Source: Mytilus trossulus (Eukaryota). From it: a DNA stretch of 54,143 nucleotides. The stretch's first letter is position 1, and every line of letters begins with the position of its first letter. Below the pieces are notes generated by a model. It was not told where the DNA came from, did no database searches, and saw only the letters and a program-made list of their open reading frames with translations. The stretch lies in NCBI RefSeq assembly GCF_036588685.1, contig NC_086382.1, positions 50,143,235-50,197,377 of the forward strand, given 5' to 3'. Of the stretch, positions 11,826 to 53,618 are shown piece by piece. Both the position numbers and the translations under genes were made by a program.

Positions 11826-14800
11826 AATCAACTACCACTGCAAGTGCGGTTAAAACATCAACAACAACAACTGTTGTCAATAACACTAACAAAGTTGGTA
11901 CTTCTACCGAAACGCTGTTGATAAACACCAAAGGAACAGCTGTCTTTGAGACTCGTGGATCAACATCTGACGAAGCAACTCACACATCATCATCAACCTT
12001 ACAAAAAACAACCACTCAAGCTTCGAACTCTCCGATTTCTAATGATAACCAGTCGAAAACAGTAGCACGCACAGCAAATTCTGGGAGTACACCGCCATTC
12101 ATTTCTGACACTCAGACTTTTGGTACGAGAACAAATGATACGACTGTGACAGACGCAATAACTGATGAAGATACTGTTACAGCCGTAGAAACAAACAAAC
12201 TTACATCTTTATCTTCTAATACTGTCACTACCACTAAGAATGTTGGTACCACTGCAGACACACCGTTGACAAACAAAGAACGGACATTTACTGTCTCTAA
12301 GATTAATAAATCATCATCTGACGAAACCACTCACACAGCTACAGCAAACTTGCTAGAGACAGCCGCAGATCAATTTTCGGTCTCTCAGATTACTAATAAC
12401 AAATCGACAGAAACGACGGAAACCATGGCTAGACCAGAAACGCCAACAAAAACGTCTACATCCATATCTGACACTCAGGCGATCGGCTTTACAACAGATG
12501 ATACTACGGCGACAGAAACAAAAACTAGTGAAACTACTGTCACAGACGCAAAATCTATCGAACTCACCTATTCATCGAATATTGTTGGCCCTACAAATAC
12601 CACTATTGGTACTACCGCAGAAAAACGGTTGATAGATACGGATGGTACAACTACTGTTCCCGAGACTCATGGATCACCATCTGACAACACGGCTCAAACA
12701 TCAGCAACATTATTAATGGAGACAACCGCTGATCAAGCTTTGAGTTCTCAGATTACTTATGATGAACCGAGGGAAATATCGAACATAATAACTAACTCAA
12801 CAACGCCAACAAAAACACAAGCAACCATTTCTGAGAGTCAAACAATTGACTTTACAACAGATGATAGCAATTTGACAGACGCAATACCCCATGAAGATGC
12901 TGTCACAGCTGCAGAAACCATCAAAAGTACTTCTATATCTAATACTGTTGTCACTACCACGAACACTGTTGACACTTCCGTTACAAAGCCGTTGAATAAT
13001 ACCAAAGGTACAACTGTCTTTGAGACTCATGGGTCGAAATCTGACGAAACAACTCGCACATCAACATCAACCTTGATAAAGACAACCGCTCAGCAAACTT
13101 CGAACTCTCCACCTACTTATACAAAACTGGGGGTGACGACAGAAACTATGGTTGGCTCAAAAGCCCAAACGAAAACACCGGCATTTATTTCTAACACTAA
13201 GACGATTGGCTCAAGAAAAGTTGATACAACAATAAGTGAAGTTTCTGTAACAGCTGCAAAAACAATCAAACATTTCTCTATAACAAATACTATTGGTACT
13301 ACGGAAGAAACCCCATTGATAAACACCGAAGGTATGACTACAGTCTCTGAGACTCGTGATCCAGGATCCGATGCAATAACTCACACAGCAGTAACAACAT
13401 TGCTTGAGACAACCACCGAACAAGCCCTTGTCTCTCCGACTACCAATAATAAACCGATGGAAATGACAGACACTACAGCTAGCACAGCAATGCCAACTAA
13501 AACTATCTCTGAGACTCAAGGACCAACATTTGACAAAAGCACTCACACAGCAGCAATAACCTTACAAAAAAACACTCAAGCTTCGAACGCTCCGATTACT
13601 AATGAAAACCAGACGAAAACAATAACAAGCACAGCAAATCCTGGGAGTATTCCGCCATTTATTTCTGACACTCAGACTATTGGTACTAGAACAAACGATA
13701 CCACTGTGACAGACGCAATAACTGATGAAAATACTGTCACAACTGCCAAACTTATGCCTATCATTATTGGCACTTCTACTAAGACTATTGGTACTACGGC
13801 AGAAAATCAGTTCATAAACACAAACAATACATCTATTGTCTCTCAGAATCATGGAAGACCAACTGACGAAACCACTCACACAGCAGCAACAAACTTACTA
13901 GAGACAACCACTGATCAATCGTCGGTCTCTTCCTTTACGAATTACAAACGGACAAAAACAACAAATCCTATAGCTAGACCAGATACGCTAATAAACACGT
14001 CTGCGTTCATATCTAACACTCAAATGATCGGCTTTACAACAGATGATAATACGGCTACAGCCACAACAATAAGTGAAGCTACTGACACAGACGCATATGC
14101 CATACAACGTACCTCGATGTTTAATACTGCTGGCATAACTACTAAGACTGTTGGTAGTATCCCTGATAAACATTTGACAAACACAGAAGGTGCAGCTACG
14201 ATTTTTGAGACTAATGAACCAACATCTGATGAAACAACTTACACCGCAGCCAAATCACTTGTAACAATAACCGTTGATCGAGCTTCGGACTCTCCGAACC
14301 CTAATGAAAATCCAATGGAAACGACGGAAACCATAGGTAGCTCGACAACGCAAACAAAAACGTCTAAATCCATGTATGACACTCAGACGAACGACTTTAA
14401 AACAGATGATACCATGATGACAAACACTTCAATTAGTGACGCTCCTGACACAAACGCAAACACAATCCATCTTACTTCGATGTCTAATACCACAATGACC
14501 AATGGCACTACCACCGATAAACATTTGATTAGCACAAAAGATACAAATACTGTTTTTGAGACTTATGAACCAAAATCTGACGAAACATTTTTCACAGCAG
14601 CAACAACCCTGGTAACGATAACCGCTGATCAATCTTCGGTCCCTCCGATTGCTAATGATAAACCGACGAAAACGACAGAAACCATAGCTAGCTCGGAAAC
14701 GCCAACACAAACGTCTCAATCCATTTATGACACGCAGACAATCGGTTTTACAACAGATGATAATACAGTGACAGACACAACAACTAGTGAAGCTACTGTA

Positions 14801-17800
14801 ACAGCTGCAAAAACCATCGAGGCTACCTTAATATCTAATACTGCTGGTATAACCACAAGGACCATTGGTACTATCACCGATAAGCATTTGACAAACACAG
14901 AAGGTACAACTACTGTTTCTGAGACTCGCGGATTAACATCTGACGAAACAACTTATACAGCACCAACCACCCTGCTACAGACCACCGCTGCTCCAGCTTC
15001 GGTCACTTCGATTGTTAATGATAAAATGACGGAAAAGATGAAAACCATAGCTAACTCAGAAACGCCAACAAAAACGTCTACATCCATATCTGACACTCAA
15101 ACGATCGGCTTTACAACAGATGATATAACGATGACAAACACAACAACTATTGAAGCTACTGACACAGCTGCAAAAAACATCCAACTAACCTCGATGTCTA
15201 GTTCTGTTGGCATAACCACTAAACTTGTTGGTAATATCCCCGATAAACATTTAACAAACACAGAAGGTACAACTACTGTTTCTCAGCCTCAAGAACCACC
15301 ATCTGACAAAACCACACACACAGCAGCAACAACTCTGCTAAAGACCACCGCTGATCAAACTGCAGACCCTTCGATTACTAATGATAAACCGACGGAAACG
15401 ACGTACTCCATAGATTACTCACAAACGCCAACAAAAACGTCGACGTCCATATTTGACTCTCAAACGATCGGCATTACAACAGTTGATACTATGATAACAG
15501 ACAAAACAATTATTGAAGCTACTGACACAGGCTCAAACATAATCCAACTCACGTCGATGTATAATACTGCTGACATAACTTCTAGTATCATTGGTACAAC
15601 CACCGATCAACATTTGACCAACACAGAAGGTACAACTATTGTTTCTGAGACTCATGAACCACCATCTGACGAAACAACACACACAGCAGCCACAATTTTG
15701 CTAGAAACATCTGCTGGTCAATCTTCGGTCACTCCCATTACTAATTATAAACCGACGGAAACGATGGAAGCCACAGTTAGCTATGAAACGCCAATAATAA
15801 GGTTTACATCCATGTTTGACACTCAGACAATCGGTTTTACAACAGATGATAATACGGTAACAGACACAACAACTAGTGAAGCTACTGTAACAGCTGCAAA
15901 AACCATCGAGGCTACCTTAATATCTAATACTGCTGGTATAACCACAAGGACCATTGGTACTATCACCGATAAGCATTTGACAAACACAGAAGGTACAACT
16001 ACTGTTTCTGAGACTCGCGGATTAACATCTGACGAAACAACTTATACAGCACCAACCACACTGCTACAGACCACCGCTGATCCAGCTTCGGTCACTTCGA
16101 TTGTTAATGATAAAATGACGGAAAAGATGAAAACCATAGCTAACTCAGAAACGCCAGCAAAAACGTCTACATCCATATCTGACACTCAATCGATCGGCTT
16201 TACAACAGATGATATAACGATAACAAACACAACAACTATTGAAGCTACTGACACAGCTGCAAAAAACATCCAACTAACCTCGATGTCTAATACTGTTGGC
16301 ATAACTACTAAACGTGTTGGTAATATCCCCGATAAACATTTAACAAACACAGAAGGTACAACTACTGTTTTTCAGTCTCACGGACCAACATCTGACGAAA
16401 CCACACACACAGCAGCAACAACCCTGATAAAGACCAACGCTAATCAAAGCGCAGACCCTTCGATTACTAATGATAAACAAACGGAAACGACGGACTCCAT
16501 AAATAGATCAGAAACGCCAACAAAAAAGTCTACACCCATATCTAACACTCAGACGGTCGGCTTTATAACAGATGATCCTACGATGACAGACACAGCTAGT
16601 GAAGCTACTGTAACAGCTGCAAAAACCAATGAACTTACCTCGATATCTAATACTGCTAGCATAACAACTAGGACCATTGGCGCTACCACCGATAAACATT
16701 TGACAAGCACGAAAGGTACAGCTATTGTTTCTGAGACTTATAAACCAACATCTGACGAAACAACTTACACGGCAGCAACAACCCTGCTAAAGACAACCGC
16801 TGATTCAGCTTTGGTCACTTCGATTACGAATGATAAATTGACGGAAACGACGGACTCTATAGATAGATCAGAAACGTCAACAAAAAAGTCTACACCCATA
16901 TCTGACTTTCAGACGATCGTCTTTACAACAGATGATCCTACGATGTCAGACAAAACTAGTGAAGCTACTGTAACAGCTGCAAAAACCATCGAACTTACCT
17001 CGATATCTAATACTGCTGGCATAACAACTAGGACCATTGGCGCTACCACCGATAAACATTTGACAAGCACGAAAGGTACAACTATTGTTTCTGAGACTTA
17101 TAAACCAACATCTGACGAAACAACTTACACGGCAGCAACAACCCTGCTAAAGACAACCGCTGATTCAGCTTTGATCACTTCGATTACGAATGATAAATTG
17201 ACGGAAACGACGGACCCCATAGATAGATCAGAAACGCCAACAAAAAAGTCTACACCCATATCTAACACTCAGACGATTGGCTTTACAACAGATGATCCTA
17301 CGATGACAGACACAGCTAGTGAAGCTACTGTAACAGCTGCAAAAACCAATGAACTTACCTCGATATCTAATACTGCTATAATAACAACTAGGACCATTGG
17401 CGCTACCACCGATAAACATTTGACAAGCACGAAAGGTACAGCTATTGTTTCTGAGACTTATAAACCAACATCTGACGAAACAACTTACACGGCAGCAACA
17501 ACCCTGCTAAAGACAACCGCTGATTCAGCTTTGGTCACTTCGATTACGAATGATAAATTGACGGAAACGATTGACTCCATAGAAACGTCAACAAAAAAGT
17601 CTACACCCATATCTGACATTCAGACGATCGTCTTTACAACAGATGATCCTACGATGTCAGACACAACTAGTGAAGCTACTGTAACAGCTGCAAAAACCAT
17701 CGAACTTACCTCGATGTCTTATACTGTTGACATTACCACTAATACTGTTGATACTACAGAAGGAGAATCATTGATAAACACAGAAGGTACAACTTTTGTC

Positions 17801-19015
17801 GTTGAGACTCATGAACTAAAATCTGAGAAAACATCATTCACAACAGAAACATCATTTGTAGATACAACCGTTGATCACGCTGCGGACTCTTTGATCATGA
17901 ATAATAAACTTACGTCAACATCCGCAAGTAGTGTCGAACTTTCTTATAGAACTACTAATAAGAATATTGACAAATCCGCTGACATTTCATCTACAAACAC
18001 CGAAGGAACAACTATTTTCTCTGAGACTCATGAACCACCATTTGACAAAACAGCTAACACATCCCTTACAACCTTGGTAGAGACAACTGCTGGTCAAGCT
18101 TTAGTCTCTCCGATCACAATTAATAAACAGATGGAAACGACAGACACAAAAGCTAGCGCGGCAACGCCAACAAAAACGCTGGCATCCATTTCTGAAACAA
18201 ATGGATTTACAACAGATTATACGACTGTGACAGACGCAACCATTAATGAAGCTACTGTCATATCCGCAAAAAAACTTACCTCTGTGTATAATACTCCTGG
18301 AACTACCACTAATAATATCGATGACAAAACCGTTAATATTCAATTGACTAACAACGAAGGTACAACTGTCTCAAAGACTCATAGAGCGACAGCTGACGAA
18401 TCAACTCACAAAGCAACGACAACCTTGCTAGAGACCACAGCTGTTCAAACTTCGAACGCTCCGTTCAATCATGATAAACCGACGGAACTGACGGACACTG
18501 TAGCTGGCTCAGAAACCCTTATGATAACATCGGCATCAATTTCTGACTTTCATACGATTGGCACTAGAACATATGATACGACTGTGACAAAACAACCAAC
18601 GGATGAAGTTCCTTTCACAGCCTCAGAAAACATTAAACTAACCTCTACTTCTGCTCATATTGGCACTATCATTAACACTGTTGGTACTACCGCAGAAAAT
18701 TCGCTGACAAGCACCGAAGGAACAACAACTATATATGAGACTCATGGACCAACAATTGACAAAACAACTATTACAGCGGCTTATCAACCTTCGATCATTC
18801 CGATCACTGATAATGGACAAACGGAAACGACAGACACAATAGATAGCTCAGCAACGCCATCGAAAACAACAGCATCCATTTCTGAAACTCAGACGGTTGG
18901 TCTAACAACAGATGATGCTACTGTAACAGACGCAACAACTAGTGAAGCTACTATCACCGTCGCAAAAACCATCGAACTTACCTCCAAATTAAATTATACT
19001 AGCACTTCCACTTAA
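11826..19015 (+). CDS. Mucin-like gene exon 3: about 2395 aa of Thr/Ser-rich (PTS) tandem-repeat domain, with stop TAA at 19013-19015
   Basis: Acceptor ttctcttttttAG at 11824-11825. G(10454)+AA(11826-27) gives GAA=E, which is exactly in frame with the long ORF (..ESTTTASAV). The 120-aa repeat consensus is ..TPTKTSTSISDTQTIGFTTDD.T.TDT.SEATVTAAKTIELTS.SNTAGITTRTIG.TTDKHLTNTEGTTTVSETH.P.SDETTHTAATTLL.TTADQ.S...ITNDK.TETT. Confidence 0.75.
16480..17650 (+). repeat. Higher-order repeat inside the mucin CDS: 720-bp periodicity (two alternating 360-bp subunit types), at least 3 near-identical copies
   Basis: Identical reverse-strand ORF artefacts 16508..16699 and 17228..17419 lie exactly 720 bp apart. 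Subunit types alternate: NTQT(V/I)GF..MTDTAS..KTNELTS..GTAIV versus D(F/I)QTIVF..MSD(K/T)TS..KTIELTS..GTTIV. Confidence 0.85.
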
Positions 19016-26380: not shown

Positions 26381-27221
26381 TGGTGTCTAATTTTTGATAC
26401 CTTTGAAGCATGACATTTATTACCTGCTGCCATCCCCACCTCAAAGACCAACACACCCTCCCTTGACACCTCCACTATTCCTTACTTATTTAGTCCTTGC
26501 TATGCTCTATCAGAAAATATAAACAAACCTTTCGTATGATCCAACATCTTTTTAAACCTTTTCACATACTCTTATTTTTTTCAATTAAAATAACATGATG
26601 TGGTATGATTGGCAATGAGTTTAATATCCTTTTCCGATAAATCCAATGACCAATTAAGTGAGGTGGATTTAAGAAGGCCTGTTGACCATTGCTTGACCTT
26701 TAACAATTATTATCCTCCTGTGTCCATCCAAAACCAGGATACTTTTATGAGGCTATTTATTTGGTATCTCTATCATGAATCTATTATAATTAGTGTTTAT
26801 AATTTTAGTCATGCTCTATTTTTCAGATAAAAAGATGTCAATATTTAGTGATTGTCAGATAGTCCTGGACTTGACTACCAGTGTCAACTTTAAGAAAAAG
26901 ACAGAAATCAGGAAAATTATCACTAATAATGGAGGAGTTATATCCTATATTGTCACTAAAAAGGTAAACATCATAGAGCCTGCCATTTTACAAATTCCAG
27001 TTTTTAGAATTTTATAATATAACAAGGTGTGGTGGATTATTGCCAATGAGACAACTGAAATTCAACAAAGGTCAAAACTTCAATAATCAAGATTTTAAAA
27101 AGCAATTTTATCATTTAACAATTGTTCTTGCAAAGTTCCGGACAGTTGAATTTAAGTGTTACCAAGAGAATTGAAAAGGAAGTTTAATATGACAAACCAT
27201 ACTACTTATATAGTAACCATT

Positions 27222-27940
27222 TTTCGTAAATCCTAGTAATCTTTTACAAAAATCTTCTCCTCTGAAACTAGGTTGCCAAATTTAACCAAACTTGGCCACA
27301 ATCATCATTGGGGTATCTTGTTTAAAATTTGTGTCCGGTGACTTGATCAACTATTCAAGATGGCCGCCATGGCTAAAAATAGAACATAGGGGTAAAATGC
27401 AGTTTTTGGCTTATAACTGAAAAACCAAAACATCAAGAGCAAATCTGAAATGGGTAAAAAAAATTATCAGGTCAAGATCTATCTGCCCTGAAAATTTCAG
27501 ATGAATCGAAACAAACCGTTGTTGGGTTGCTGCCCCTGAATTGGTAATTTTAAAGAAATTTTGCTGTTTTTGGTTATTATCTTGAATAAAATTATAGATA
27601 GAGATAAACAGTAAACAGCACTTAAGATTTACAAATAAGTCAACATGACCGATATGGTCAGTTGACCCCTTTAGAGTTACTGCCCTTTAAAGTCAATTTT
27701 CAACATTTTTCATAAATTTTTGTAGATTTTTCGAAAATATTTTCCACTGTAATTACTGGGCCAAGTTCATTATATATAGAGCTAATTGTAGCAACAAGAA
27801 TTTTCAGTAAAGTAAGATCTACAAACACATCACCATCATCAAAACACAATTTTGTTATGAATTTATCTGTGTCCATTGTTTAATATGCACATAGACCAAA
27901 GTGAGTGACACAGGCTCTTGAGAGCCTCTAGTTTTAAGGT
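27222..27940 (+). mobile_element. Truncated single-unit copy of the composite element seen at 40430-43460: one 480-bp satellite unit plus tail, lacking the terminal repeats
   Basis: Collinear with 42060-43300: taatcttttacaaaaatcttctcctctgaaact...ccaagatggccgcc..ggctaaaaatagaacataggggtaaaatgcagtttttggcttataac...cacaggctcttgagagcctctagtttt. Confidence 0.7.
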
Positions 27941-29039: not shown

Positions 29040-29850
29040 CATGTTTTCAAACAAAAAAGTCGCATTTTTTGGGCGTATGACATTTGCGCCGATTTTGAAA
29101 ATTTTCATTCTTTCATTTGCGCCGATTTCATTTTTTCATTTGCGCCGATTTTATATTTTTTCCTAATTGGATTTACAGGTAAGTTACAGGTAAGTTCATA
29201 CTTTAACATTGGCCGAGCACAGAGTATAAAGACAAATCAAGTGACATTGCAATTGGTAAATGGCTATCCCAATGTTTCGGGTTACCATTCCGTTGGCTTT
29301 CCCTAAATGAAATCGATGACTGCTTCACGTTTGACATTGTCTGACGCTCCGCTCCTTCTGATGGCAAATTTTATACATTCGTAGACAACGTACAAGTACA
29401 CATTCCATAACGGTCAACCAATTCGTGATGGTGTCCATAAAATTAACGGAGGAATGATTTCAACTTCACCATGTGGAACTCTTGGTTTAATAGTTCCCTT
29501 GTGAGAAAATGCGAACTCTAGAAATACCCCACCAGTACAGTACGTATGCCAGACAAAGAAAAGATGACCTTCTTTATCGACAATTACGCCAAATATAGAA
29601 GAGACGAAATCATAAGAAAGGAATATATGTGTTGCCTACTATACATACTCGGCAAAAACCGAGATTTATGATTTGAATGTATTCCGTTTTTATGGATTTG
29701 AATGCTGTACATATATTTTTTAATTCGTCATTTTAGTATAAACAAAGTGCTTTTATCTCAGGTTTTTATTTCTTGATTTAAAAGACAAAATTGGCGCAAA
29801 TGAAATGCAGATCGGCGCAAATGCAAAATGCCGCATTTTTTACATATAAA
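29040..29850. mobile_element. Candidate TIR element of about 0.8 kb with subterminal repeats: catttgcgccgatt x3 at the left end and aatcggcgcaaatg / ggcgcaaatg in inverted orientation at the right end
   Basis: Left end: aaaaaagtcgcattttttgggcgtatgacatttgcgccgattttg..catttgcgccgatttc..catttgcgccgatttt. Right end: ttggcgcaaatgaaatgcagatcggcgcaaatgcaaaatgccgcatttttt. The two ends are reverse complements. Confidence 0.45.
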
Positions 29851-30651
29851 TAATGATTTTTATCTAATTTCCGCAGGTAAATGTGCCTTTGACCAAATTA
29901 GACACTAACGACTAAAACAACATATTTTGCAATAAAAACATGTATTGTTCTTCCACTAATCCCCCATGTAGGAATAGCCAGAATAGTAAAATACAAAATG
30001 TAGGAATAGCCAAATATTCATACTGAGGAATGTATCTGATATTAGAATGCAAGTTCTAATTATTTTGATACTACCCCAGTTATTATTCCCATTAATAAAA
30101 AACTAACAAGAATTTTTGAATTCACTGTAAATATGACTATTTATATCTAATTCTTCCTCAATTTATCCCTTTCTGCACCCATTGTATAAAAAAATTTAAT
30201 CAGCATGTGGTTTGTTTGATCTAAGTACTTCATTGGTTAAAATCCGATTATGACGTCGAATTTTCTTGCTTTCCTCTAAAATTCCTATTTTGACGGCATG
30301 AAAAAAGGCGACCATGCCTCAGGCGGCCATCATCATGACGTCACATAGAAAGAACACTTTATTTTGCAGATCATTCGAAAAGAAGGAATAAGTGTGCCCG
30401 CATATAATGTTAGAAAATCATTAGAGAAACAGATTCCACCACCAAATCTCGTGTAATACAATATTTATCCACTCATGACAGTTAAATTTAAAATATTTAA
30501 AACACTCTGGCAAGCCTCACGTTTTAAATTTGAAAATTTAACTTTCTCTAGTTGATTAATATTATATTACACTCGATGCAGCGGTAGAATCTATATGTTT
30601 TCCCAAATCCAACTAATAATTTCACTTGACTATTTACAAATTTATTTACAG

Positions 30652-31169
30652 AGTACACATGTTGTTTGTAATGACCCAGAAAAGGGAGATATCAGTAACA
30701 AATGTAAAATGGCCACAAAGTATGGATTACCAGTAGTGTCACTTGATTATATCCATGATTGTGTAGACCAGGGGAGACTACTCAGTTGTCTAGTTTATTA
30801 TATGTTTCTGGTTTATTTTCAGAGTACACATGTTGTATGTAATGATCCAGAAAAAGCAGATATCAGTTCAAATGTAAAATGGCCACAAAGTATGGAATAC
30901 CAGTAGTGCCGCTTGATTATATCCATGATTGTGTAGACCAGGGGAGATTACTCTGTTGTCTAGTTTGTTATATGTTTCTGGTTTATTTACAGTGTACACA
31001 TGTTGTTTGTAATGATCCAGAAAAGGCAGATATCAGTTACATGTACAAATGTAAAATGGCCACAAAGTATGGATTACCAGTAGTGTCACTTGATTATATC
31101 CATGATTGTGTAGACCAGGGGAGATTACTCTGTTGTCTAGTTTGTTATATGTTTCTTGTTTATTTACAG
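30652..31169 (+). repeat. Three extra tandem copies (units of about 171, 170 and 177 bp) of the 3-prime end of an intron plus the 5-prime 130 nt of the PARP4 BRCT exon. Each copy carries an acceptor but no donor.
   Basis: The units begin at 30652, 30823 and 30993. Each starts with ..tttatttacAG (a/t)GTACACATGTTGT.TGTAATGA.CCAGAAAAGG.AGATATCAG...ATGGCCACAAAGTATGGA.TACCAGT.GTG.CACTTGATTATATCCATGA.TGTGTAGACCAGGGGAGA.TACTC and then switches back to pyrimidine-rich intron-like sequence. Confidence 0.85.
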
Positions 31170-31368
31170 AGTACACATGTTGTATGTAATGACCCAGAAA
31201 AGGCTGATATCAGTTACAAATGTAAAATGGCCACAAAGTATGGATTACCAGTGGTGTCACTTGATTATATCCATGACTGTGTAGACCAGGGGAGATTACT
31301 CAATACAGATAATTACATCCTGGTTGGAAAAACAAAGTCACAAGAATTCAGCTCAGGAAAGATAACAG
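31170..31368 (+). CDS. PARP4: PARP4-like exon: BRCT domain C-terminal half (fourth and only complete copy). Ends phase 1 at donor ACAG|GTAAAAG.
   Basis: Translation is STHVVCNDPEKADISYKCKMATKYGLPVVSLDYIHDCVDQGRLLNTDNYILVGKTKSQEFSSGKIT. I aligned this to my recollection of human PARP4 as ..THIILDNADVLSQYQLNSIQKNHVHIANPDFIWKSIREKRLLDVKNYDP, which is not a database check. Acceptor AG at 31168-31169, donor GT at 31369-31370. Confidence 0.65.
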
Positions 31369-33415: not shown

Positions 33416-34199
33416 TGTGTTTATTACTAAGCATACAATATATTTGCTTGTGAGAGAATTGCTCACTATTTGGTATGGGCTTTGCTCATTTTTGAAGGCT
33501 GTACGGTGATCTATAGTTGTAAATTTCTGTGTCATTTGGTCTCTTGTGGAGAGTTGTCTCATTGACAATCATATCACATCTTGTTTTTTTTATATATATA
33601 CAATATTCCTTATTAGTAAAACTTTAAATGATAGCTTACATGTTACTTATATTGTAGTTATATATTTCAGAAATATGACAAGTTAAAAGAGACGACACTG
33701 TTTTATAATTTGGAGATACATGTAGCTGATCCTGTAGATTTAAACAGATCAGACTGTTATAGATTTAGAGTATTTTCACACCATGGTTCTACAGCTGAGA
33801 TTGAGGTAGATCAGATTATCAGATTGTAATTGTTTGATTTCCAAATTTTAAGAGGATTCATAAGTTAATAAACAAGTACTGTGGATTCATTATTATTCTT
33901 TGAATACCAATTTTAATGGATTCTGGGGTACAGGTGAACCACAAAATATAAGTTTGAAGAATAGAAAATTATCTATTGACTAAATGTGTGAAGAATTTGG
34001 CAAAAAACATGAAATTAAATATCCACAAACATATTTCCTTAAGCCACGAAAATTGGTGGTACCCATGAAAATGAATGAATCAATAGTAGCTGTCAAATTA
34101 ATATAATTGATTAGTTTATAAGTTGCGCTGTGCAATATTTTTATACAACCGCAAAAGTTGGAAAAAAATTTGGTCACATATTGGTATGACATTTGTGTC

Positions 34200-35140
34200 C
34201 TCATCTTCGTCCGAAGACATTTGGTTTTCGCACTATAACTTTAGTATAAATTTATAGAATTCTATGAAATTTAAACACAAGGTTTATGACCATATAAGGA
34301 AGGTTGGGATTGATTTGGGGAGTTTTGGTCCAAACAGTTTGGGAATTAGGGGCAAAAAAGGGCCCAAATAAGCATTTTTCTTGGTTTTCACACAATAACT
34401 TTGTAATATAAGATTTATGACTACAAAAGAAAGGTTGGGAATGATTTTGTGAGTTTTGGTCCAAACAGTTTAGGAATTAGGGACCAAAAAAAGTCCCAAA
34501 GAAGCATTTTTCTTGTTTTTTGCACAATAACTTTACTATAAGTACAGAAATCTATGAAATTTTAACACCAGGTTTATGATCACAAAAGGAAGGTTGGGGT
34601 TGATTTTGGGAGTTTTTGTCCCAACAGTTTAAATTAGGGTCTAAAAGGGTCCAAAATTAAACTTTGTTTAATTCATCAAAAAATTAATTATTGGGGTTCT
34701 TTGATATGCCAAATCTAACCGTTTATTCAGATTCTTAATTTTTGGTCCGGTTTTCAAATTGGTCTACATTAAGGTCCAAAGGGTCCAAAATTAAATTTAG
34801 TTTGATTTTAACAATTATTGAATTCTTGGGGTTCTTTGATATACTGAATCTAAACATGTACTTAGATTTTTGATAATGGGCCCAGTTTTCAAGTTGGTCT
34901 AAATCAGGGTCCAAATTTAAACTTGTTTGATTTCAACAAAAATTGAATATATTGCGTTCTTCAATATGCTGAATTTAACCATGTATTTAGATTTTTTATA
35001 TTTGGGCCTGGTTATCAAATTGGTCCACATTGAGGTCTAAAGGGTATAAAATTGAACATTATTTGTTTTCATCAAAAAAATAATTCTTGGGGTTCTATGA
35101 TATTCTAAATCTAACCATGTATTTAGATTTTGGACCATAA
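34200..35140. repeat. Two adjacent intronic tandem arrays: about 3 units of 150-160 bp (34200-34640), then about 4 units of 125 bp (34640-35140)
   Basis: Array A repeats ..aggttgggattgattttgggagttttggtccaaacagtttgggaattagggg.caaaaaagggcccaaa.aagcatttttcttggtttt. Array B repeats ggtccaaa.ttaaa.ttgtttgattt..caaaaa.t.aat.cttggggttctttgatat.ctgaatctaaccatgtatttagatttt. Confidence 0.75.
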
Positions 35141-35555
35141 TAGGTAAATGTCCAATTTAAAATTTTAAGTTTTTAATTTTAAGTTTTAAGATCACATTCA
35201 TTCTGTGTCAGAAACCTATTTTGTGTCAACTATTTAATCACAATCCAAATTCAGAGCTGTGTCAAGCTCAATTGTTGTGTCCATACTTGCCCAAACTGTT
35301 CAGGGTTCGACCTCTTTGCTTGTAAAAATCAGCGCCCTGCGGAGCATTTGGTTGTTCATGAAATCACCATTGTTCATATGTCTCTGATTGATACAAACAT
35401 TGATTATATATTTTGTTAACCTGTATGTATTATTGAGATCTAATATCTGAACATTTACAGTTAATTCTAAAATGAAAAAAATAACACTAGTCTGAAGTGT
35501 GGAAAAAACTCCATATAAGGACCAGTCTGTAATACGATTTGATATTATTTTTCAG

Positions 35556-35708: not shown

Positions 35709-36309
35709 GTAGGTCGTATAAAAATTTGATAAAATATATAGAAATAAGAAGATGTGGTATGATAGTCCAGTCAAACTAAGATTTAACCTCAAACTAATTG
35801 CAACAAAAAATGTTTTAGTTCTAATCTATAGTAGTATGCCCCATAAAATCTAACTTCAGGAAAACTCAAAATCAGCATTTTTAATTTCCAATGGAAATTA
35901 ACATTGGAAGGGGAGATAACTCTTGCAAAAATGAGTCTTTTTTTTGGTCAGTTTTTGGTTGTTTTTCTTGAAATTTATGTAAAGTATGATACTTTGATGG
36001 GGTTATAAGTTTGTATTTGACTATATTATATAATCTCCTGCTCATGAAATGTACAAAATTGAAGTGTTATGGGTAGTTTTATTTTTTGTCGAGTCTTAGA
36101 CTTTAGTCGAAAAAGCGGGACTAAGCGATCCTACATTTCATCGTCGGCTTAGGCGGCGTCCACAAATATTCACTTTGTGGTTAAAGTTTTTGAAATTTTA
36201 ATAACTTTCTTAAACTACACTGGATTTCTACCAAACTTAGACAGAAGCTTGTTTATGATTATAAGATGGTATCCAGTAGTAAATTTTGTAAAAATAAAAT
36301 TCCATTTTT

Positions 36310-37140
36310 TTCGTATTTTACTTAAGGTCAAGGAACAGTAAATGGGCTATGTCGCAGATATTGCTAAAAAATTGCATACAACCTTGGCTCGTTGAACTAC
36401 AACTGAAAGTCGAAAAAATTATACATTTATCTCTTTTATTTTCTGAAAAATTGCAGATTGATTTCTCTTAATATGGGTGAACATTTGTATAGGAAGCACA
36501 TAAAATCGACGAAAAACCTTCTAAAATTTGTCTTTAAATCGCCAAATCTATAATTCTACTCCATAGATTTTTCTTAAAAAACTATATATTGTTGACACAT
36601 AAATTTCTGTTTTAATGATATAAAATAATCATAGGGTCACCGACTTCGTTTTTTGTCTAATAATCATTTTGCTACCTTATTGGTAGTGAAAAACGTCAAA
36701 AATCAACGTTTTACGGCCTGCAACGCGATAACGTTACGATTATTTCGACGTTTTGTTGGATTTTTTCACAAAGAACGCATCTTTGAATGATGTATACCGT
36801 AAAAACGAAGTCGGTGACCCTATCTTTATTTTGCATCATTATAACGGAAATTTATGTATCAACAACATATAGTTTTTTAAGAAAAATCTATGGAGTAGAA
36901 TTAGAGATTTGGCGATTTTAAGACAAATTTTAGAAGAGTTTTCGCCGATTTTATGTGCTTTCTATACAAATGTTCACCCATTTTGTAAGAATTCAATCAG
37001 TAATATTTCAAATGATAATTGAGATAAATGCATTTTTATTTCGATTTTCAGTTGAAGTTCATCGAGCCAGAGCTGTATGCCAAATTTTACTGAAATCTAT
37101 GACATAGCCCATTTACTGTAACTTGACCTTAAATGGACTT
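36310..37140. repeat. Near-perfect long palindrome: two arms of about 330 bp in inverted orientation around a 160-bp spacer
   Basis: 36310-36650 (gtcaaggaacagtaaatgggctatgtcgcagatattgc...aatcatagggtcaccgacttcgtttttt) is the reverse complement of 36810-37140 (aaaacgaagtcggtgaccctat...gacatagcccatttactgtaacttgacc). The spacer carries its own small inverted repeats (acgtcaaaaatcaacgttttacgg / ccgtaaaaacgaagtc). Confidence 0.85.
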
Positions 37141-37900
37141 AGTTTTTTCTGCGGGGAAACATAACATCCACTCTGTGGTTAAAGTTTTTAGAATTTTAAT
37201 AACTTTTTTAAACTATTCTGGGTTTGTACCAAACTTGGACAGAAGCTTGTTTATGATCATAAGATAGTATCGAGAAGTAAATTTTGTAAAAATGAAATTC
37301 CATTTTTTCCATATTTTACTTATAAATGGACTTAGTTTTTTCTTCGGGGAAACATAACATTCACTCTGTGGTTAAAGTTTTTAGAATTTTAACAACTTTT
37401 TTAAACTATCCTGGGTTTGTACCAAACTTGGACAGAAGCTTTTTTATGATCATAAGATAGTATTCAGAAGTAAATTTTGTTTAAAAAAAAAAAAAAAAAT
37501 CTCGTATTTTACCTTTAAATGGACTTAGTTTTTTCTGCGGGGAAACATAACATTCACTCTGTGGTTAAAGTTTTTAGAATTTTAATAACTTTTTTAAACT
37601 ATTCTGGGTTTGTACCAAACTTGGATAGAAGCTTATTTTTGAGCATGAGGTAGTATCTAGTAAATTTTGTAAAAAGATAACTCCATTTTTTCTGTTTGTT
37701 AATTTTTAAATGGACTTAGATTTTCTTCCAGTGAACATTACATACAGTCCGCAGTTGAATTTTCGAAACATTTATTAGATTCATTAACTATCCTAGATTT
37801 TTACCAAACTTGGACAGAAGCTTCTTACAATCATCAGATAGTATCAAGAGGAATATTTTTATTGATTTTTTTCCTCAGTTTTGTTGAGCCTGTGATTTAC
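37130..37900 (+). repeat. 190-bp tandem array, about 4 units. One further unit sits upstream of the palindrome at 36150-36330.
   Basis: The unit is aaatggacttagttttttctgcggggaaacataacattcactctgtggttaaagtttttagaattttaataacttttttaaactattctgggtttgtaccaaacttggacagaagcttgtttatgatcataagatagtat..agaagtaaattttgtaaaaa. The motif ggttaaagttttt is shared with the MITE at 51018-51300. Confidence 0.8.
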
Positions 37901-38988
37901 AGTAAAAGTAGGCGAGACACTGGTTCCGCGGAACCCTTACAAATTTTTTTCATGCATTTTTCATTAAAGAAATTTCAAATTTAAAGCTTTGTCAGCATTT
38001 TGAAAAAATAATGTGAAAATTTGGTATTGTTTATATCTGTATATGATATTTTTTTAACAACATAATTATCTAAAGAAAGTTTAAACCACAAAAAGAGGAA
38101 TACATGCTCAATTTTTTTTTAATTAAATTTGAGATTCTTAACCTTGACATGTTGAAAAATTCAATAAATGGTCAACTAATGAATTACGAAATCTAGATTA
38201 TAGCTTGATAAATTATATGAAAACACCTTTAGAGTTGTTTGTTATACTCTAAAGACTGCTAAAAAATCTAGAATCAATACATTCTGATGAATAGAAGCGG
38301 TAAAGTTATAATTTTGTATCAATTTTTATTGACATTTCTGCCTTTTTTGCAAGTTATCTCCCTTTTCAATGCAAATTTCCATAGGAAAATTTAAATGGTG
38401 ATTTTTTTAGTCTTCCTCAAGTTAGATTTTATGGGACTTTTTTCTGTGTATATTTGGGGTTTTAATGCTTAAGATTAAAACTTAAAAATCTTCTGTTGCA
38501 ATTACTTTCAGGTTAGGGTCAAATTTATACTAGATTGATTGCTAATGACATTGAAGTTAACAACTATAGCCTATAGGTCACTGTTAAGGTTTTCTTGAAT
38601 GAGCAAAACCCATACTGTATAGTCAAGGCCTTGAAATTACCATTGTAAAGCAATTGTAACAAGAAACCTATGGCCTGATTTATGTACAAAACAATGCACA
38701 AAAAACTGATATGCAGCAGTAAACAACAACCACTGATTACTTGGGACCAGCACTTACAGAATGTGGTGGGGTTAAACTATAGTTTGCTGGTGTCAATACA
38801 AATTTATATAATCATTAGAAGTTACAACCTATGCTTAAACTTAATTGATTTAGCATGTCAATTACCCCTGCTACTATGAGCCTGAATATTGAGAACCAGA
38901 CTAAATATTTTCTGCAATTGGGTGAATTTATTGCTTAGTTTGCCTATTCTTAAAAGCAAATTTAAGTGAGGTAAAAAATGTTTTTCAG

Positions 38989-39843: not shown

Positions 39844-40011
39844 ATAGAGAAAGCAGAAGCTATTCTGTTGATGATAAAGGATTGTAAGGATGACTCAAGA
39901 GTAGTAAAATTGTTTGAAGAATTTTATGAAGCATTACCACACAAAAACAAAAATCAACCTGTCAGTTCACAGAGGAGATCATGGCTATCAAAGAAACAAG
40001 ATATATGTCAG
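39844..40011 (+). CDS. PARP4: PARP4-like exon: helical domain, phase 0
   Basis: Acceptor tatattatAG at 39842-39843. Translation IEKAEAILLMIKDCKDDSRVVKLFEEFYEALPHKNKNQPVSSQRRSWLSKKQDICQ aligns to my recollected human SKAEGILLLVKAALKNGETAEQLQKMMTEFYRLIPHKG...LLAKKADLCQ. Donor CAG|GTAATA at 40012. Confidence 0.7.
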
Positions 40012-40429
40012 GTAATATGCTTGATCCATTTCAATTACCAGAAATACTCTTTTAACTGACTTCTGACTTCTGACTTCTGATGCAACTTTTAATGGGTAAA
40101 GTGCATCCCTGAATATTTGAACAGATGAAGTAATTGTGATTGCTTGACATTTTTTCAAACACCGGTCTTTATTTTCATGAACATAATCAAAACCTGCCTA
40201 TAGAAATATATTAAATTTTATCATTTAAAAACAGTTATCAAAGCAGTCACATATAATTTATCACCATTAGAATATTCATCCCTTAGCTCAACGCACTGAC
40301 ATAAACTTTATGTCAAGCAAACCTATTATTGACTTCAAATTATGTCACATAAAACCAAACACTTCCACAGAAAAGAGTCTTGTAAGTTAATATTCATACC
40401 AAAAATCTTTCTTCACTCATTTTCCATTA

Positions 40430-43400
40430 CAATTAGTGACCTTCATTATACCCCACACAACGGGTTGCGGAGGATATAATGTTTTTGACCCGTCCATCCT
40501 GAAGTCCGTCTGTCAGTCCGTCAGTCAGTCCTGTTTCTTGTCATCGCAATTCCTCTCAAACCACACAACAGAATTTCACGAAACCTTTTCAGATCATAAG
40601 GACATACTATGTAGTTGTGCATATCAACCGAAAATTGCGATTCAATTTTTTTTCTAGGAGTTACACTCTTTTGAACTTATTTACTTTAATGTACTGCTGC
40701 AACAGTTTGTCATCGCAACTCCTCTCAAACCACACAACAGAATTTCACGAAACCTTTTCAGATCATAAGGACATACTATGTAGTTGTGCATATGGACGGG
40801 AAATTGCGATTTAATTTTTTCTAGGAGTTATGCCCCTTTGAACTTATTTACTTTAATGTACTACTGCAACAGTTTGTCATCACAACTCCTCTCAAACCAC
40901 ACAACAGAATTTCACGAAACCTTTTCAGATAATAAGGACATACTATGCAGTTGTGCATATCAACGGGAAATTGCGATTCAATTTTTAGCTCACTTGGCCC
41001 TTCGTTCGGGCCAAGTGAGCTTTTCCCATCACTTTGCGTCTGGCGTCCGTCGTCGTCCGTCGTCTGTCGTCCGTCGTCTGTCGTCCGTCGTCGTTGTTAA
41101 CTTTTACAAAAATCTTCTACTCTGAAACTACTGGGCCAAATCAAACCAAACTTGGCCACAATCATCATTGGGGTATCTAGTTTAAAAAATGTGTGGCGTG
41201 ACCCGGTCAACCAACCAAGATGGCCGCCACGGCTAAAAATAGAACATAGGGGTAAAATGCAGTTTTTGGCTTATAACTCAAAAACCAAAGCATTTAGAGC
41301 AAATCTGACATGGGGTAAAAATGTTTATCAGGTCAAGATCTATCTGCCCTGGAATTTTCAGATCAATCGGCCAATCGGTTGTTGGGTTGCTGCCCCTGAA
41401 TTGGTAATTTTGAAGAAATTTTGCTGTTTTTGGTTATTATCTTGAATATGATTATAGTTAGAGATAAACTGTAAACAGCAATAATGTTCAGCAAAGTAAG
41501 ATCTACAAATAAGTCAACATGGCCAAAATGGTCAGTTGACCCGTTTAGGAGTTATTGCCCTTTATAGTCAATTTTTAACCATTTTTAGTTAATTAAAGTA
41601 ATCTTTTACAAAAATCTTCTCCTCTGAAACTGCTTGGCCAAATTAATCCAAACTTGGCCACAATCATCTTTGGGGTATCTAGTTTAAAAATGTGTGGCGT
41701 GACCTGGTCAACCAACCAAGATGGCCGCCACGGCTAAAAATAGAACAAAGGGGTAAAATGCAGTTTTTGGCTTATAACTCAAAAACCAAAGCATTTTGAG
41801 GAAATCTGACATGAGATAAAAATGTTTATCAGGTCAAGATCTATCTGCCTGAAAATTTTCAGATGAATCGGTCAATCGGTTGTTGGGTTGCTGCCCCTGA
41901 ATTGGTAATTTTGAGGAAATTTTGCTGTTTTTGGTTATTATCTTGAATATTATTATAGATAGAGATAAACTGTAAACAGCAATAATGTTCAGCAAAGTAA
42001 GATCTACAAATAAGTCAACATGACCAAAATGGTCAGTTGACCCGTTTAGGAGTTATTGCCCTTTATAGTCAATTTTTAACCATTTTTCGTAAATTAAAGT
42101 AATCTTTTACAAAAATCTTCTCCTCTGAAACTACTTGGCCAAATTAATCCAAACTTGGCCACAATCATCTTTGGGGTATCTAGTTTAAAAAATGTGTGGC
42201 GTGACCTGGTCAACCAACCAAGATGGCCGCCACCGCTAAAAATAGAACATAGGGGTAAAATGCAGTTTTTGGCTTATAACTCAAAAACCAAAGCATTTTG
42301 AGGAAATCTGACATGGGATAAAAATGTTTATCAGGTCAAGAACTATCTGCCCTGAAATTTTCAGATGAATCGGTCAATCGGTCAATCGGTTGTTGCCCCT
42401 GAATTGGTAATTTTGAGGAAATTTTGCTGTTTTTGGTTATTATCTTGAATATTATTATAGATAGAGATAAATTGTAAACAGCAATAATGTTCAGCAAAGT
42501 AAGATCTACAAATAAGTCAACATGATCAAAATGGTCAGTTGACCCCTTTAGGAGTTATTGCCCTTTATAGTCAATCTTTAACCATTTTTCATAAATCTAA
42601 GTAATCTTTTACAAAATCTCCACTGAAACTACTAGGCCACAATCATCTTTGGGGTATCTAGTTTGAAAAATGTGTCCGATGACCTGGCCATTCAACCAAG
42701 ATGGCCGCCACGGCTAAAAATAGAACATAGGGGTAAAATGCAGTTTTTTGCTTATAACTATGAAACCAAAGCATCTAGAGCAAATCTGACAAGAAGTTAA
42801 ATTGTTAATCAAGTCAATATCTATCTGCCCTGAATTTTTCAGATGAATTGGACAACTGGTTGTTGGGTTGCTGCCCTCCAATTGATAATTTTTAAAGAAA
42901 TTTTGCCGTTTTTGGTTATCTTGAATACTATTATAGATAGCGATAAACTGTAAACAGCAATAATGTTCAGCAAAGTAAGATCTACAAATAAGTCAACATG
43001 ACCTAAATGGTCAATTGACCCCTTAAGGAGTTATTGCCCTTTATAGTCAATTTTTAACAATTTTCATTAATTTGGTAAATTTATGTAAATTTTTACCAAA
43101 TATAGTTCTCTGTTACTAATGGGCAAAGTTCATGATAGATATAATTGTAAGAAGCAAAATCGTTCAGTAAAGTAAGAACTTCAAACACATCACCATCACC
43201 AAAATACAATTTTTTCATGAATCCATTTGTGTCCTTTGTTTAATATGCACATAGACCAAGGTGAGCGACACAGGCTCTTTAGAGCCTCTAGTTTTTCTAG
43301 GAGTTACGCCCCTTTGAACTTATTTACTTTAATGTACTACTGCAACATTTTGTCATCTTAACTCCTCTCAAACCACACAACAGAATTTCACGAATCCTTT

Positions 43401-43460
43401 TCAGATAATAAGGACATACTATGCAGATGTGCATATTGACAGGAAATTATGATGCAATTT
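40430..43460 (+). mobile_element. Composite non-autonomous element of about 3 kb in a PARP4 intron. It comprises terminal direct repeats of about 170 bp (3 copies at 40540-41000, 1 copy at 43300-43460), a 14-bp-stem hairpin (40987-41021), a (TCCGTCG)n GC-rich tract (41035-41095), an internal 4 x 480 bp satellite (41100-43060) and a 240-bp tail.
   Basis: Terminal unit: ..tcctctcaaaccacacaacagaatttcacgaaaccttttcagatcataaggacatactatgtagttgtgcatat.aacgggaaattgcgattcaattttt. Hairpin: agctcacttggccc ttcgttc gggccaagtgagct. 480-bp unit: taatcttttacaaaaatcttctcctctgaaactacttggccaaat...ccaagatggccgccacggctaaaaatagaac...ccctttatagtcaatttttaacc. The ORF-track proteins in this interval (40436.., 40617.., 40784.., 41152..) are repeat artefacts. 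Confidence 0.7.
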
Positions 43461-43718
43461 TTTTTTCTTACACATATTTTATTTCTCCAATGACAATGTG
43501 GGGACGTGGTGTATGTGAGTGTGCTCACTAAGGTTCTATAACTGTTCATGTATATAGTGATGACAGGACAAAATTAGATCGTAACACATTTTTAAGTCTA
43601 AAAGTAAGGAAGTGCTCTATTTCAAAATTAGAGTGTTTCTTTCTTATCATTTCCCTGACTTAAAATATTTGTGTATGTTTTTGACATGATGTATGTATTT
43701 TAATATTATGTATTTCAG

Positions 43719-43870
43719 ATGATTAAAGATATGGTGGCTGTGAGTGAGTCTACAAACTGGTCGACTAGAAGTAGTACAGAGGCCAAGTATAAAGCATTAC
43801 GATGTAGACTGGATGGTTTAGAGATTACAGATACAGAATATAAACAGATCAAGGAGCACATTATACAGTC
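43719..43870 (+). CDS. PARP4: PARP4-like exon: helical domain end, phase 0 in to phase 2 out, with the weak donor ACA|GTTTGT
   Basis: Acceptor tgtatttcAG at 43717-43718. Translation MIKDMVAVSESTNWSTRSSTEAKYKALRCRLDGLEITDTEYKQIKEHIIQSLK aligns to my recollected human IRDMVNVCETNLSKPNPPSLAKYRALRCKIEHVEQNTEEFLRVRKEVLQ. Only this donor position gives an open frame into the next exon. Confidence 0.55.
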
Positions 43871-44489
43871 TCTAAAACAGTTTGTATTTTCAATACAATA
43901 CATATACATTATTTTGTTGTTGTTGATGATTCATTAACATTTAATGTATTTGTATATATCAATGGTAAACCATGAAATTTGGGTGCAACAAATACTTAGT
44001 TTTGACATTGTCATATTTATAATTAAGAACATATCTAGAATCAAGAATCTTATTAATTAGGTCTTACTGAAATCATCATGATTGGGTCAAAACAATTCAA
44101 TTTTTCCAAGGTTGTTTATAATTTTAGATAACAGCTGATTACAGGAGATTAATAGGTAATAACAGATAAGATAAATGTTTATACCAATGTCTGGATTGTC
44201 ACACTGAAAAGGATTCAATGTCACCTATAGATTCTTGGGTTATTGTGTTTTTGGATGCTGATATTTAATCCAAATCTTAAAAAGATAACATATTGAAATC
44301 ATTGGATTTAATACTTGTAGTATAAACAAATTTTCTGCTTCCAGTAAATTCTCAATGGATTGTTTTTTGTTTTCTTATTTTTTAGGCGGTAGTATATAGC
44401 TATTAAGTTTATTGCTGGTGAATTCAGGATTTACAACCGTAAGTAAAATATGATGAAGATTTTGATTTCCTTCCCCTTTTTTATTTCAG

Positions 44490-45933: not shown

Positions 45934-46437
45934 TTATTTCAGACTATTGTTATATTCCATAGTAGCAGACTTGGCATTCTTTAAAAGAACTGCACTTGGT
46001 TTCAGTTCATAGCAATGCAAATGTGTATTCATTTTACAAGAAAGAAGAGCACACAGTGTATCCTTATTAAGATCAGCCCTAAACTCTGTAGCTATTTTCT
46101 TTACTAAAGAAAATGCCCTCTCACTGTCTGCATTGCTGTTTGGCAAAACCAGTAATGTTTTAGCAAGTTTTGACAAAACAAAAAATCTTGGCTTGTTAAG
46201 AAAAATGTCATGCAACTTGGACATTTCTCCCCAAAATGTACCAATGTCAGTTTCAGGGGAAGTGCAAAGTGGAAGTTCATCTAATGGGGTCAACTGATAG
46301 TCACTGAACTCATCTTGTAGCTTGTTGAAAATATCGTTACGTAGCTCAGGTAAACAAGTCCTACATTTTGACTTTTGATTACATTGAAAAAGACCGATAA
46401 AACCGAAGGTCGTATTACTTCTAAATACCGGAAACAA
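45934..46437 (-). mobile_element. hAT-superfamily transposase remnant (C-terminal hATC dimerisation region), internally deleted. The adjacent subterminal ACGGGTG repeats at 46440-46560 are discussed under findings.
   Basis: The 167-aa ORF ..LPELRNDIFNKLQDEFSDYQL..FWGEMSK..LAKTLLVLPNSNADSERAFSLVKKIATEFRADLNKDTLCALLSCKMN carries the diagnostic hATC signature (..NADSERAFS..R..L....L..LL). The N-terminal DDE part is absent. Confidence 0.65.
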
Positions 46438-53019: not shown

Positions 53020-53345
53020 CTAATCCTAAACCTGAGTATTCCAATATCCGGCATTAACTGACACTGACATCATGGTCCAAATAAATTCCTAGCCTTGCAG
53101 AAAAAAAATGAGTATTCCAACATCCTGCATTAACTGACACTGACATCATGGTCCCAATAAATTCCTATCCTTGCAGAAAAAAACCGTGTATTCCAACATC
53201 CTGCATTAACTGACACTGACATCATGGTCCCGATAAATTCCTATCCTTGCAGAAAAAAACTGAGTATTCCAACATCCTGCATTAACTGACACTGACATCA
53301 TGGTCCCAATAAATTCCTATCCTTGCAGAAAAAAAACTGAGTATT
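53020..53345. repeat. Intronic minisatellite with a 75-bp unit, about 4.5 copies
   Basis: (a)aaaaaa.tgagtattccaacatcctgcattaactgacactgacatcatggtcccaataaattcctatccttgcag repeats head to tail. Each unit ends in a pyrimidine tract followed by CAG. Confidence 0.85.
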
Positions 53346-53618
53346 CTGACACCCTGCTCAATCCAACATTTTTTTTCTGGTCCCCCAGTGTGTCGGATAA
53401 CACAGGTTACACCGTATATTGAAAAAGTTTTCATATTCAGTGAGTAGCATTTATGAATACTTACAATCTGTTGTTTACAGTAAATCTTGATGAGACTCCT
53501 CTGTATAACATTAATATAAGTATCTTTACAGATTAAAATGATATAAGCATATGCATTACTCATCCTTTTCTACACAACTTGACTTGTTTCCTTCCAATTC
53601 TGTCTTTTTTGTTTTTAG

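Follow-up and report, generated by a model that had tools for sequence, protein, structure and literature searches.

Probable nesting of two non-autonomous Helentron-type transposons within a PARP4-like gene intron of Mytilus trossulus

Non-autonomous Helentron-type transposons (HINEs) with internal tandem repeats have been described in the oyster Crassostrea gigas. The left flank of these Cg_HINE elements carries a 5' subterminal inverted repeat (subTIR), a complementary inverted repeat of 7–12 bp located 1–12 bp away and a microsatellite, often GTCY, GTCC or GTCK (PMC7492417). It is followed by a short tandem array, always in one orientation, and by a right flank with a 3' subTIR and a palindrome, and the elements occupy T-rich or TT targets without a target-site duplication (TSD) (PMC7492417). 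The elements pearl (C. virginica, Anadara), MgE (Mytilus galloprovincialis) and DTC84 (Donax trunculus) have been re-categorised as non-autonomous Helentrons (PMC7492417). For DINE-1 and for the Helentrons of a mite and of Culex, strings of 2–5 T were reported at both boundaries, which vary among copies and are part of the element (PMC4067079). Here we analyzed a stretch of 54,143 bp from the genome of Mytilus trossulus (NC_086382.1, positions 50,143,235 to 50,197,377; in the following the window), which is eukaryotic and AT-rich (about 31% GC). A block of about 3 kb in this window had been read, from the sequence alone, as one composite non-autonomous element bounded by direct repeats (the original prediction). 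We find that the locus is very probably a nested pair of HINEs, the inner one being inserted in the 167-bp tandem array of the outer one.

We examined the features by reading positions 40000–44000, with Tandem Repeats Finder (TRF) and by self-BLAST of the region against the window. Self-BLAST E-values ranged from 1e-37 to 0, so that the features are not due to chance; since the period limit of TRF was 500, this program missed the array of ~500-bp monomers. The inner element shows the features by which HINEs are recognized: subTIRs, a 5' complementary inverted repeat, a 3' palindrome, a T-rich target and a non-coding interior with microsatellite and tandem repeats. It contains only short open reading frames (ORFs); in database searches these matched further copies of the repeat, and they carry no Pfam domain. 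With the Cg_HINE elements (Helitron-N2_CGi and others; PMC7492417) it shares the order of modules, the T-rich or TT target without TSD, an array of two to five monomers and a box at the 5' end of the monomer that is similar to Cg170 (CL1). It differs from them in its host species and in monomers of ~500 bp versus 140–180 bp. Similarities to DINE-1 and HINE-Mo (PMC4067079) comprise subTIRs of the 13-bp class, an inverted repeat 3–22 bp from the 5' subTIR, a 3' stem-loop, a microsatellite and/or central repeats, the TT target and strings of T of variable length at both boundaries. Unlike the inner element, those are arthropod families with known autonomous partners, and no sequence similarity is shared. 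The palindrome of the inner element lies 5 nt (plus the T's) from the end and its 3' subTIR 24 nt from the end, compared with 38–60 bp in the mite. Pearl, MgE and DTC84 are also non-coding and are built from a flank, a microsatellite, one to six central repeats of ~160 bp and a second flank; the outer element with its 167-bp units fits this size class, a likeness drawn from their description only. In the double-array elements of C. gigas two arrays stand in tandem within one pair of flanks, whereas here one element is nested in the array of the other.

The insertion is seen in the 167-bp repeats on both sides of the inner element. The 167-bp unit carries an oligo-T run (gattcaaTTTTTTTTctaggagtta). 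The left block of repeats stops within this run (...caattttt) and the right block restarts there (tttttctaggag...). By self-BLAST the right copy at 43292–43462 is 93% identical to 40816–40986. When the 60 nt left of 40987 were joined to the 60 nt right of 43291, the product was colinear with two intact 167-bp units, the sole difference being 2–4 extra T. A core motif of the unit is found at 40556, 40725, 40892 and 43368; subtraction of the 2305-bp insert from the last spacing of 2476 bp leaves 171 bp, and the array is therefore in phase across the insert. Colinear rejoining together with the maintained phase shows that the flanking 167-bp repeats are a pre-existing tandem array cut by insertion, and not termini resembling long terminal repeats (LTRs). 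Uninterrupted 167-bp arrays exist elsewhere, in contigs L010 (3.2 units) and L014 (two units plus right flank). The latter was the only real copy among seven loci found by scanning metagenome contigs with the 167-bp core, the other six being isolated matches of 21–25 nt.

These results change the outline of the element. A unit of ~170 bp had been counted three times at the left and once at the right, all in direct orientation; orientation and the single right copy were confirmed, while the left block comprises 2.7 copies, not three, with a period of 167 bp. The single composite element with terminal direct repeats gives way to one tandem array split in phase. The original prediction had set its termini at 40430 and 43460 and had itself named deviating copy boundaries as the outcome that would speak against it. 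This is what the copies show, the ends of the mobile unit being located at 40987 and 43291. For annotation, the mobile unit is accordingly 40987–43291 and not the 3-kb block, and the 167-bp repeats call for masking as an element of their own.

Independent copies of the inner element were collected with the 97-aa monomer ORF as query, which gave 34 metagenome protein matches; the contigs of eight of these were analyzed (L001–L008). The monomer was present in all eight contigs and the 167-bp unit in none. Four contigs (L002, L003, L005, L006) contain the left end. All four begin with the same first base, a run of T(4–8) being followed by AGCTCACCTGGCC, the loop, GGCCAAGTGAGCT, TTTCTCATCACTTGGCG and (CGTC)n. 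Upstream of this point the four sequences are unrelated to one another and to the window. The right end was found in L001, L004, L007 and L008 as well as in a truncated solo copy within the window (at 27931), each time as ...GACCAAGGTGAGCGACACA-GGCTC-NNNN-GAGCC-TCTAG, that is ...GACCAAGGTGAGCGACACAGGCTC-NNNN-GAGCCTCTAG, followed by T(2–5), and the downstream sequences are again unrelated among copies. Neither at the four left ends nor at the five right ends, the solo copy included, does the 167-bp unit adjoin the inner element, which is thus dispersed to many loci as an independent unit. The solo copy is 79–84% identical to the inner element and had already been taken as a sign of dispersal, which holds. 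The search for further copies in viral contigs gave no match for four sequence patterns.

Both ends of the inner element are conserved. The 5' hairpin, folded in silico as single-stranded DNA and compared with shuffled sequences like the other hairpins below, has the perfect 14-bp stem noted before, with a folding energy of -17.1 kcal/mol and z = -9.2; the loop of this hairpin type is 4–7 nt long. Among five copies 3 of the 14 base pairs were changed on both sides, two of them from G-C to A-T or T-A and the third from C-G to T-A. In these copies 90% of the cells of the stem alignment are paired, a value that drops to 20–54% when the 3' partner is slid by one to three columns. The 5' subTIR (AGCTCAC(C/T)TGGCC) matches the 3' subTIR GACCAAGGTGAGCG (reverse complement CGCTCACCTTGGTC) over 10–11 nt with one indel, and each of the two is conserved in every copy that carries the respective end. 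The 3' palindrome GGCTC-NNNN-GAGCC is located 5 nt before the end in 6/6 copies with a 3' end. It is only moderately stable (-6 kcal/mol, z = -2.1), and in the six copies substitutions are confined to the loop.

Two further observations concern the 5' end. At stem position 8 a C·A or C·T mismatch is present in L002, L003, L005 and L006, compared with 14/14 pairs in the window; at this site the 5' arm reads CC and matches GG of the 3' subTIR, which suggests that pairing with the 3' subTIR, in addition to that with the adjacent inverted repeat, may constrain the arm. The copy at L001:2330–2457 retains the microsatellite, two monomers and a complete 3' end; the entire 5' hairpin is missing, so that the conserved TTTTCTCATCAC comes directly after the target T-run. 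Possibly the palindrome was deleted, or initiation took place downstream of it.

The interior of the inner element consists of microsatellite and monomers. The GC-rich (TCCGTCG)n tract of the original prediction is the (CGTC/CGTCYGT)n microsatellite, whose length differs among copies of the inner family. Its satellite of four copies plus a tail was likewise recovered; the unit, however, measures ~500 bp instead of 480 bp. Identity is 94–96% among monomers 1–3 and 82% between these and the fourth. A diverged partial monomer is contained in the tail (tail versus monomer z = 15), indicating that the array runs into the right flank and is not a foreign block. The satellite had been called captured, for which we obtained no proof; the partial monomer agrees at least equally well with an array that arose from sequence of the element itself. 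We compared the monomer with the C. gigas HINE monomer Cg170 (cluster CL1), taken from the supplement of PMC7492417. Its first ~100 bp, mainly the box AGTAATCTTTTACAAAAATCTTCTCCTCTGAAACTA, are similar to Cg170 with a local score of 27 versus 12.7 ± 1.6 for shuffles (z = 8.9). The idea that the 500-bp monomer is a higher-order trimer of ~167-bp subunits was rejected, as no significant similarity exists between its thirds (z between -0.4 and 0.7). Nor did the 167-bp unit show significant homology to the 500-bp monomer (z = 1.3) or to Cg170 (z = -0.5). They share the motif CTCCTCTSAAACY, which is no more than a hint, having been derived from the very sequences compared.

Filled and empty sites could be compared twice. 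In addition to the 167-bp units, a paralogous repeat at 1163–1352 of the window serves as an empty site, to which the two flanks of the L001 copy align colinearly once joined. The L001 copy is inserted within a T-run (...CATTTTT^AGCCATGG), and nothing else is duplicated. The target belongs to a dispersed repeat (...CACCTGAGATCACCCC...GGGTTCGTGTTG...TTTTTAGCCATGGCGTTG...), a further copy of which is located at 29407–29505. In both comparisons the insertion lies inside a T-run and no non-T base is duplicated. The ends of the inner family carry T4–8 at the 5' side and T2–5 at the 3' side. At each junction of the inner element five bases are T on both sides and lie within the T-run, so that an LTR-sized TSD of 4–6 bp is indistinguishable from length variation of the T-run or from T's borne by the element. 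The target-site check proposed earlier, insertion between T's without TSD for a Helentron versus 4–6 bp for an LTR-like element, therefore turned out in favor of a Helentron as regards the position in a T-run and the lack of any non-T duplication, a duplication of T only being indistinguishable at the junctions.

T-runs were also entered by other elements. In L004 a different HINE is nested in the T-run of a 500-bp monomer, the TTTTT of an intact monomer being changed to TTTT, insert and TT. The window contains a HINE-like element at 34165–35346 that is 69–78% identical to this 717-bp element, which is nested in reverse orientation in the monomer. It consists of the left flank TTTTTATACAACCGCAAAAG...TTTGGTCACATA, a degenerate microsatellite, repeats of 131–135 bp (34279–35131) and the right flank ...TCAGCGCCCTGCGGAGCATTTGG followed by TT. 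At 36075–37935 an array of 193 bp x 3.8 (37129–37846) is present with one earlier unit at ~36160 and the right flank TAGGCGAGACAC-TGGTTCCGCGGAACC-CTTACAAA-T7. This flank parallels AGGTGAGCGACACA-GGCTCTTTAGAGCC-TCTAG-T5 of the inner element and therefore probably belongs to a related HINE family. An 811-bp foldback, whose arms at 36322–36668 and 36786–37132 are 84% complementary, interrupts the 193-bp array. Arrays of shorter units at 48–991 (79 bp x 12) and 53028–53357 (76 bp x 4.3) showed no obvious hairpin or microsatellite in their flanks on inspection. With at least four HINE-type elements in the window, the genome appears to be HINE-rich in the manner of bivalves.

The outer element is probably a HINE as well, with its right end at 43505 or possibly at 43533. 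Its modules, TATACCCCACACAA / TTGCGGAGGATATA, GTTTTTGACCCGTC, (GTCN)n and the 167-bp array, follow the same order as in the inner element, and its left flank has the structure known from HINEs. Similarity to contig L009 starts at about 40445 (ATTATACCCC), the left flanks being 78% identical. The hairpin is weak in the window (z = -0.75), while the homologue in L009 is better kept (-9.4 kcal/mol, z = -3.8). On the right side the similarity to L014 stops directly after TGTGGGGAC, and the palindrome at 43515–43528 is not shared with L014, the single other copy. A pattern for the outer right flank gave no match in genome contigs and viral contigs. Two genome-contig matches to a pattern for the left flank were discarded as chance hits, since they stem from bacterial metagenome-assembled genomes and show no further similarity. 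The coordinates of all features are collected in Table 1.

Table 1. Features of the two elements and of the solo copy (positions refer to the window)
Feature	Position	Strand	Description
Inner HINE-type element, whole	40987..43291	+	2305 bp, excluding the ambiguous flanking T's at 40982-40986 and 43292-43296
Inner 5' hairpin	40987..41021	+	5' subTIR AGCTCACTTGGCCC (40987-41000), 7-nt loop, complementary inverted repeat GGGCCAAGTGAGCT (41008-41021)
Inner spacer and microsatellite	41022..41094	+	Conserved TTTCYCATCACTTNGCG, then (CGTC/CGTCYGT)n at 41037-41094
Inner central tandem repeats	41101..43071	+	Four monomers starting at 41101, 41603, 42104 and 42606; 502, 501, 502 and 466 bp
Inner right flank (tail)	43072..43291	+	220 bp; 3' subTIR GACCAAGGTGAGCG (43254-43267), palindrome GGCTCTTTAGAGCC (43273-43286), terminal TCTAG (43287-43291)
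Solo copy of the inner family	27214..27931	+	One monomer and right flank; ends ...GGCTCTTGAGAGCCTCTAG, then TTTT; without 5' part, hairpin and microsatellite
Outer left flank	40447..40478	+	5' subTIR TATACCCCACACAA, 4-nt loop CGGG, complementary inverted repeat TTGCGGAGGATATA; degenerate hairpin
Outer spacer and microsatellite	40479..40537	+	Conserved ATGTTTTTGACCCGTC, then (GTCC/GTCT/GTCA)n; from TRF and L009 alignment
Outer 167-bp tandem array, left part	40538..40986	+	2.7 units; ends within the T-run of the unit; TRF period 167, 92% matches
Outer 167-bp tandem array, right part	43292..43465	+	One unit; picks up in phase at the T-run
Outer right flank, common with L014	43466..43505	+	40 bp past the last unit; ends TGTGGGGAC (43497-43505), 8/9 complementary to the 5' subTIR
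Possible continuation of outer right flank (uncertain)	43506..43533	+	Palindrome GTGAG-TGTG-CTCAC (43515-43528), TAAGG, TT; by analogy with the L004 insert

The structure suggests the following course of events. An older outer element, reaching from ~40445 to 43505 or possibly 43533, would have consisted of a now degenerate hairpin, (GTCN)n, about 3.7 units of 167 bp and a right flank of short length. Into the oligo-T of one 167-bp unit a second element, 2305 bp long, then inserted in the same orientation. The inner element is non-coding and would be moved in trans by a Helentron Rep/helicase(-endonuclease), as we infer from Helentrons and DINE-1. Recognition by such a protein would depend on the terminal inverted repeats and stem-loops, and integration between two T's would proceed by a reaction of rolling-circle type. 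In this way the tandem repeats would be carried along as internal cargo and scattered through the genome. No Rep/helicase ORF was found within the window.

Several points weigh against the assignment as a nested pair of HINEs. Mobilisation by a Helentron Rep/helicase is drawn from analogy. The 3' end, with a hairpin, CTAG and then T, fits the 3' signature of canonical Helitrons as well. Monomers of 500 bp are well above the 140–180 bp typical of oyster HINEs. A TSD of 2–5 T is formally compatible with the data, every observed insertion being inside a T-run. For the outer element the call as a HINE is weaker, since its right flank depends on one other copy and on an inverted repeat of only 9 nt.

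One alternative is a non-autonomous canonical Helitron. Hairpin and TCTAG (the CTRR signature) followed by T were found in 6/6 3' ends, no TSD is evident, and homologous oyster elements are filed in Repbase as Helitron-N (PMC7492417, supplement). We nevertheless consider this classification of the inner element unlikely, because its 5' end reads T(n)AGCTCAC and not TC, and the base preceding the T-run is A in only 3/5 copies. Canonical Helitrons are moreover without subterminal inverted repeats, 5' complementary inverted repeat and T-runs at both ends, which are hallmarks of Helentrons and HINEs (PMC4067079). The Helentron-type class put forward at the outset therefore applies to the inner part, but not to the 3-kb block as a whole.

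Only slight weight is given to an extension of the nested pair of HINEs, according to which the locus would be an intermediate in the formation of a new composite HINE. The whole 3.1-kb unit (array A, complete element B, array A) could be mobilised provided that its outer ends are still recognised. In this case decay of the inner flanks would lead to a double-array HINE as found in C. gigas (Cg_HINE_10_13, _11_12), and insertion into the T-run that every monomer contains would generally allow HINE satellites to mix and recombine.

That the block already is one composite element of 3 kb, bounded by terminal direct repeats of ~170 bp and either LARD/TRIM-like or a composite Helentron, is very improbable. 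The direct orientation of the 167-bp units on both sides of the internal part would agree with it, and double-array HINEs are known in C. gigas (PMC7492417). The two sides are, however, complementary pieces of one unit split in phase, with 2.7 copies versus one, and not two LTRs of equal length. In other copies the inner ends never adjoin the 167-bp unit, hence these lack the supposed LTRs, and 167-bp arrays occur alone. There is neither a purine-rich tract before the right copy nor a tRNA-like sequence, and the unit is without TG...CA ends.

A cut-and-paste miniature inverted-repeat transposable element (MITE) or foldback, moved by a DDE transposase via its inverted repeats, was the first classification of pearl. 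The inverted repeats of 11–14 nt near both ends and the lack of coding capacity are consistent with this; but the ends are asymmetric, the 5' repeat being terminal and the 3' repeat lying 24 nt inside a conserved terminus (ACACAGGCTCTTTAGAGCCTCTAG) that is non-palindromic to the 5' end. No duplication of TA, TTA or longer was seen at the two filled-versus-empty sites, and the same architecture has been moved from MITE to Helentron in the literature (PMC4067079, PMC7492417). A MITE is thus highly unlikely. A short interspersed element (SINE)-like retroposon or one dependent on a long interspersed element (LINE), whose minus strand would end in microsatellite, stem-loop and A-run or whose plus-strand copies lacking the 5' part would be 5' truncations, is scarcely probable either. 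A(4–8) does follow the stem-loop on the minus strand and the solo copy does keep the plus-strand 3' end without the 5' part. However, neither a head resembling tRNA, 5S or 7SL RNA nor an Rfam match was found, and on the minus strand the shortened copy would lack its 3' end, which is opposite to what reverse transcription produces. The plus strand shows no poly(A) or LINE-type tail, variable-length TSDs are not seen, and the apparent truncation in L004 is a nested insertion.

The inner element gave no Rfam match (E <= 1) and no tRNA with ARAGORN, and a literature search with terminal sequence strings and accession numbers returned nothing relevant. As a nested pair of HINEs the locus is a textbook case of Helentron-derived elements that scatter satellite-like arrays in euchromatin, introns included, and pile into one another's T-runs. 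It goes slightly beyond the descriptions from oyster by the 500-bp monomer with a Cg170-like box and by the clean empty site within the locus itself, leaving the established picture unchanged. This is a well-described kind of element, and the finding is real but ordinary.

The nested pair is located in an intron of a PARP4-like gene, between two exons encoding a PARP_reg-like stretch, and in the orientation of the gene. Exons of this gene were identified on the + strand by their Pfam domains BRCT, PARP_reg (weak), PARP catalytic (E = 3e-23) and VIT (E = 1e-29). A host function of the nested structure is not evident. Within an intron of the same gene, at 45934–46437 on the - strand, an ORF of 167 aa with a hAT C-terminal dimerisation domain (PF05699, E = 3e-9) was found, which represents either what is left of a hAT transposase or a copy that has been domesticated. 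At 30641–31301 a 177-bp x 3.8 tandem duplication (KCKMATKYGLPVVSLDYIHDCVDQGRLL, repeated) contains BRCT-coding sequence of the PARP4-like gene. As this coding sequence lies inside the 177-bp repeat, an exon and its surroundings have been tandemly amplified. Upstream of the gene, at 11801–19015, a single ORF of 2404 aa is Thr/Ser-rich, is built of tandem repeats of 363 bp (121 aa) and has a strong C>G and A>T skew; it looks like a giant exon of mucin type.

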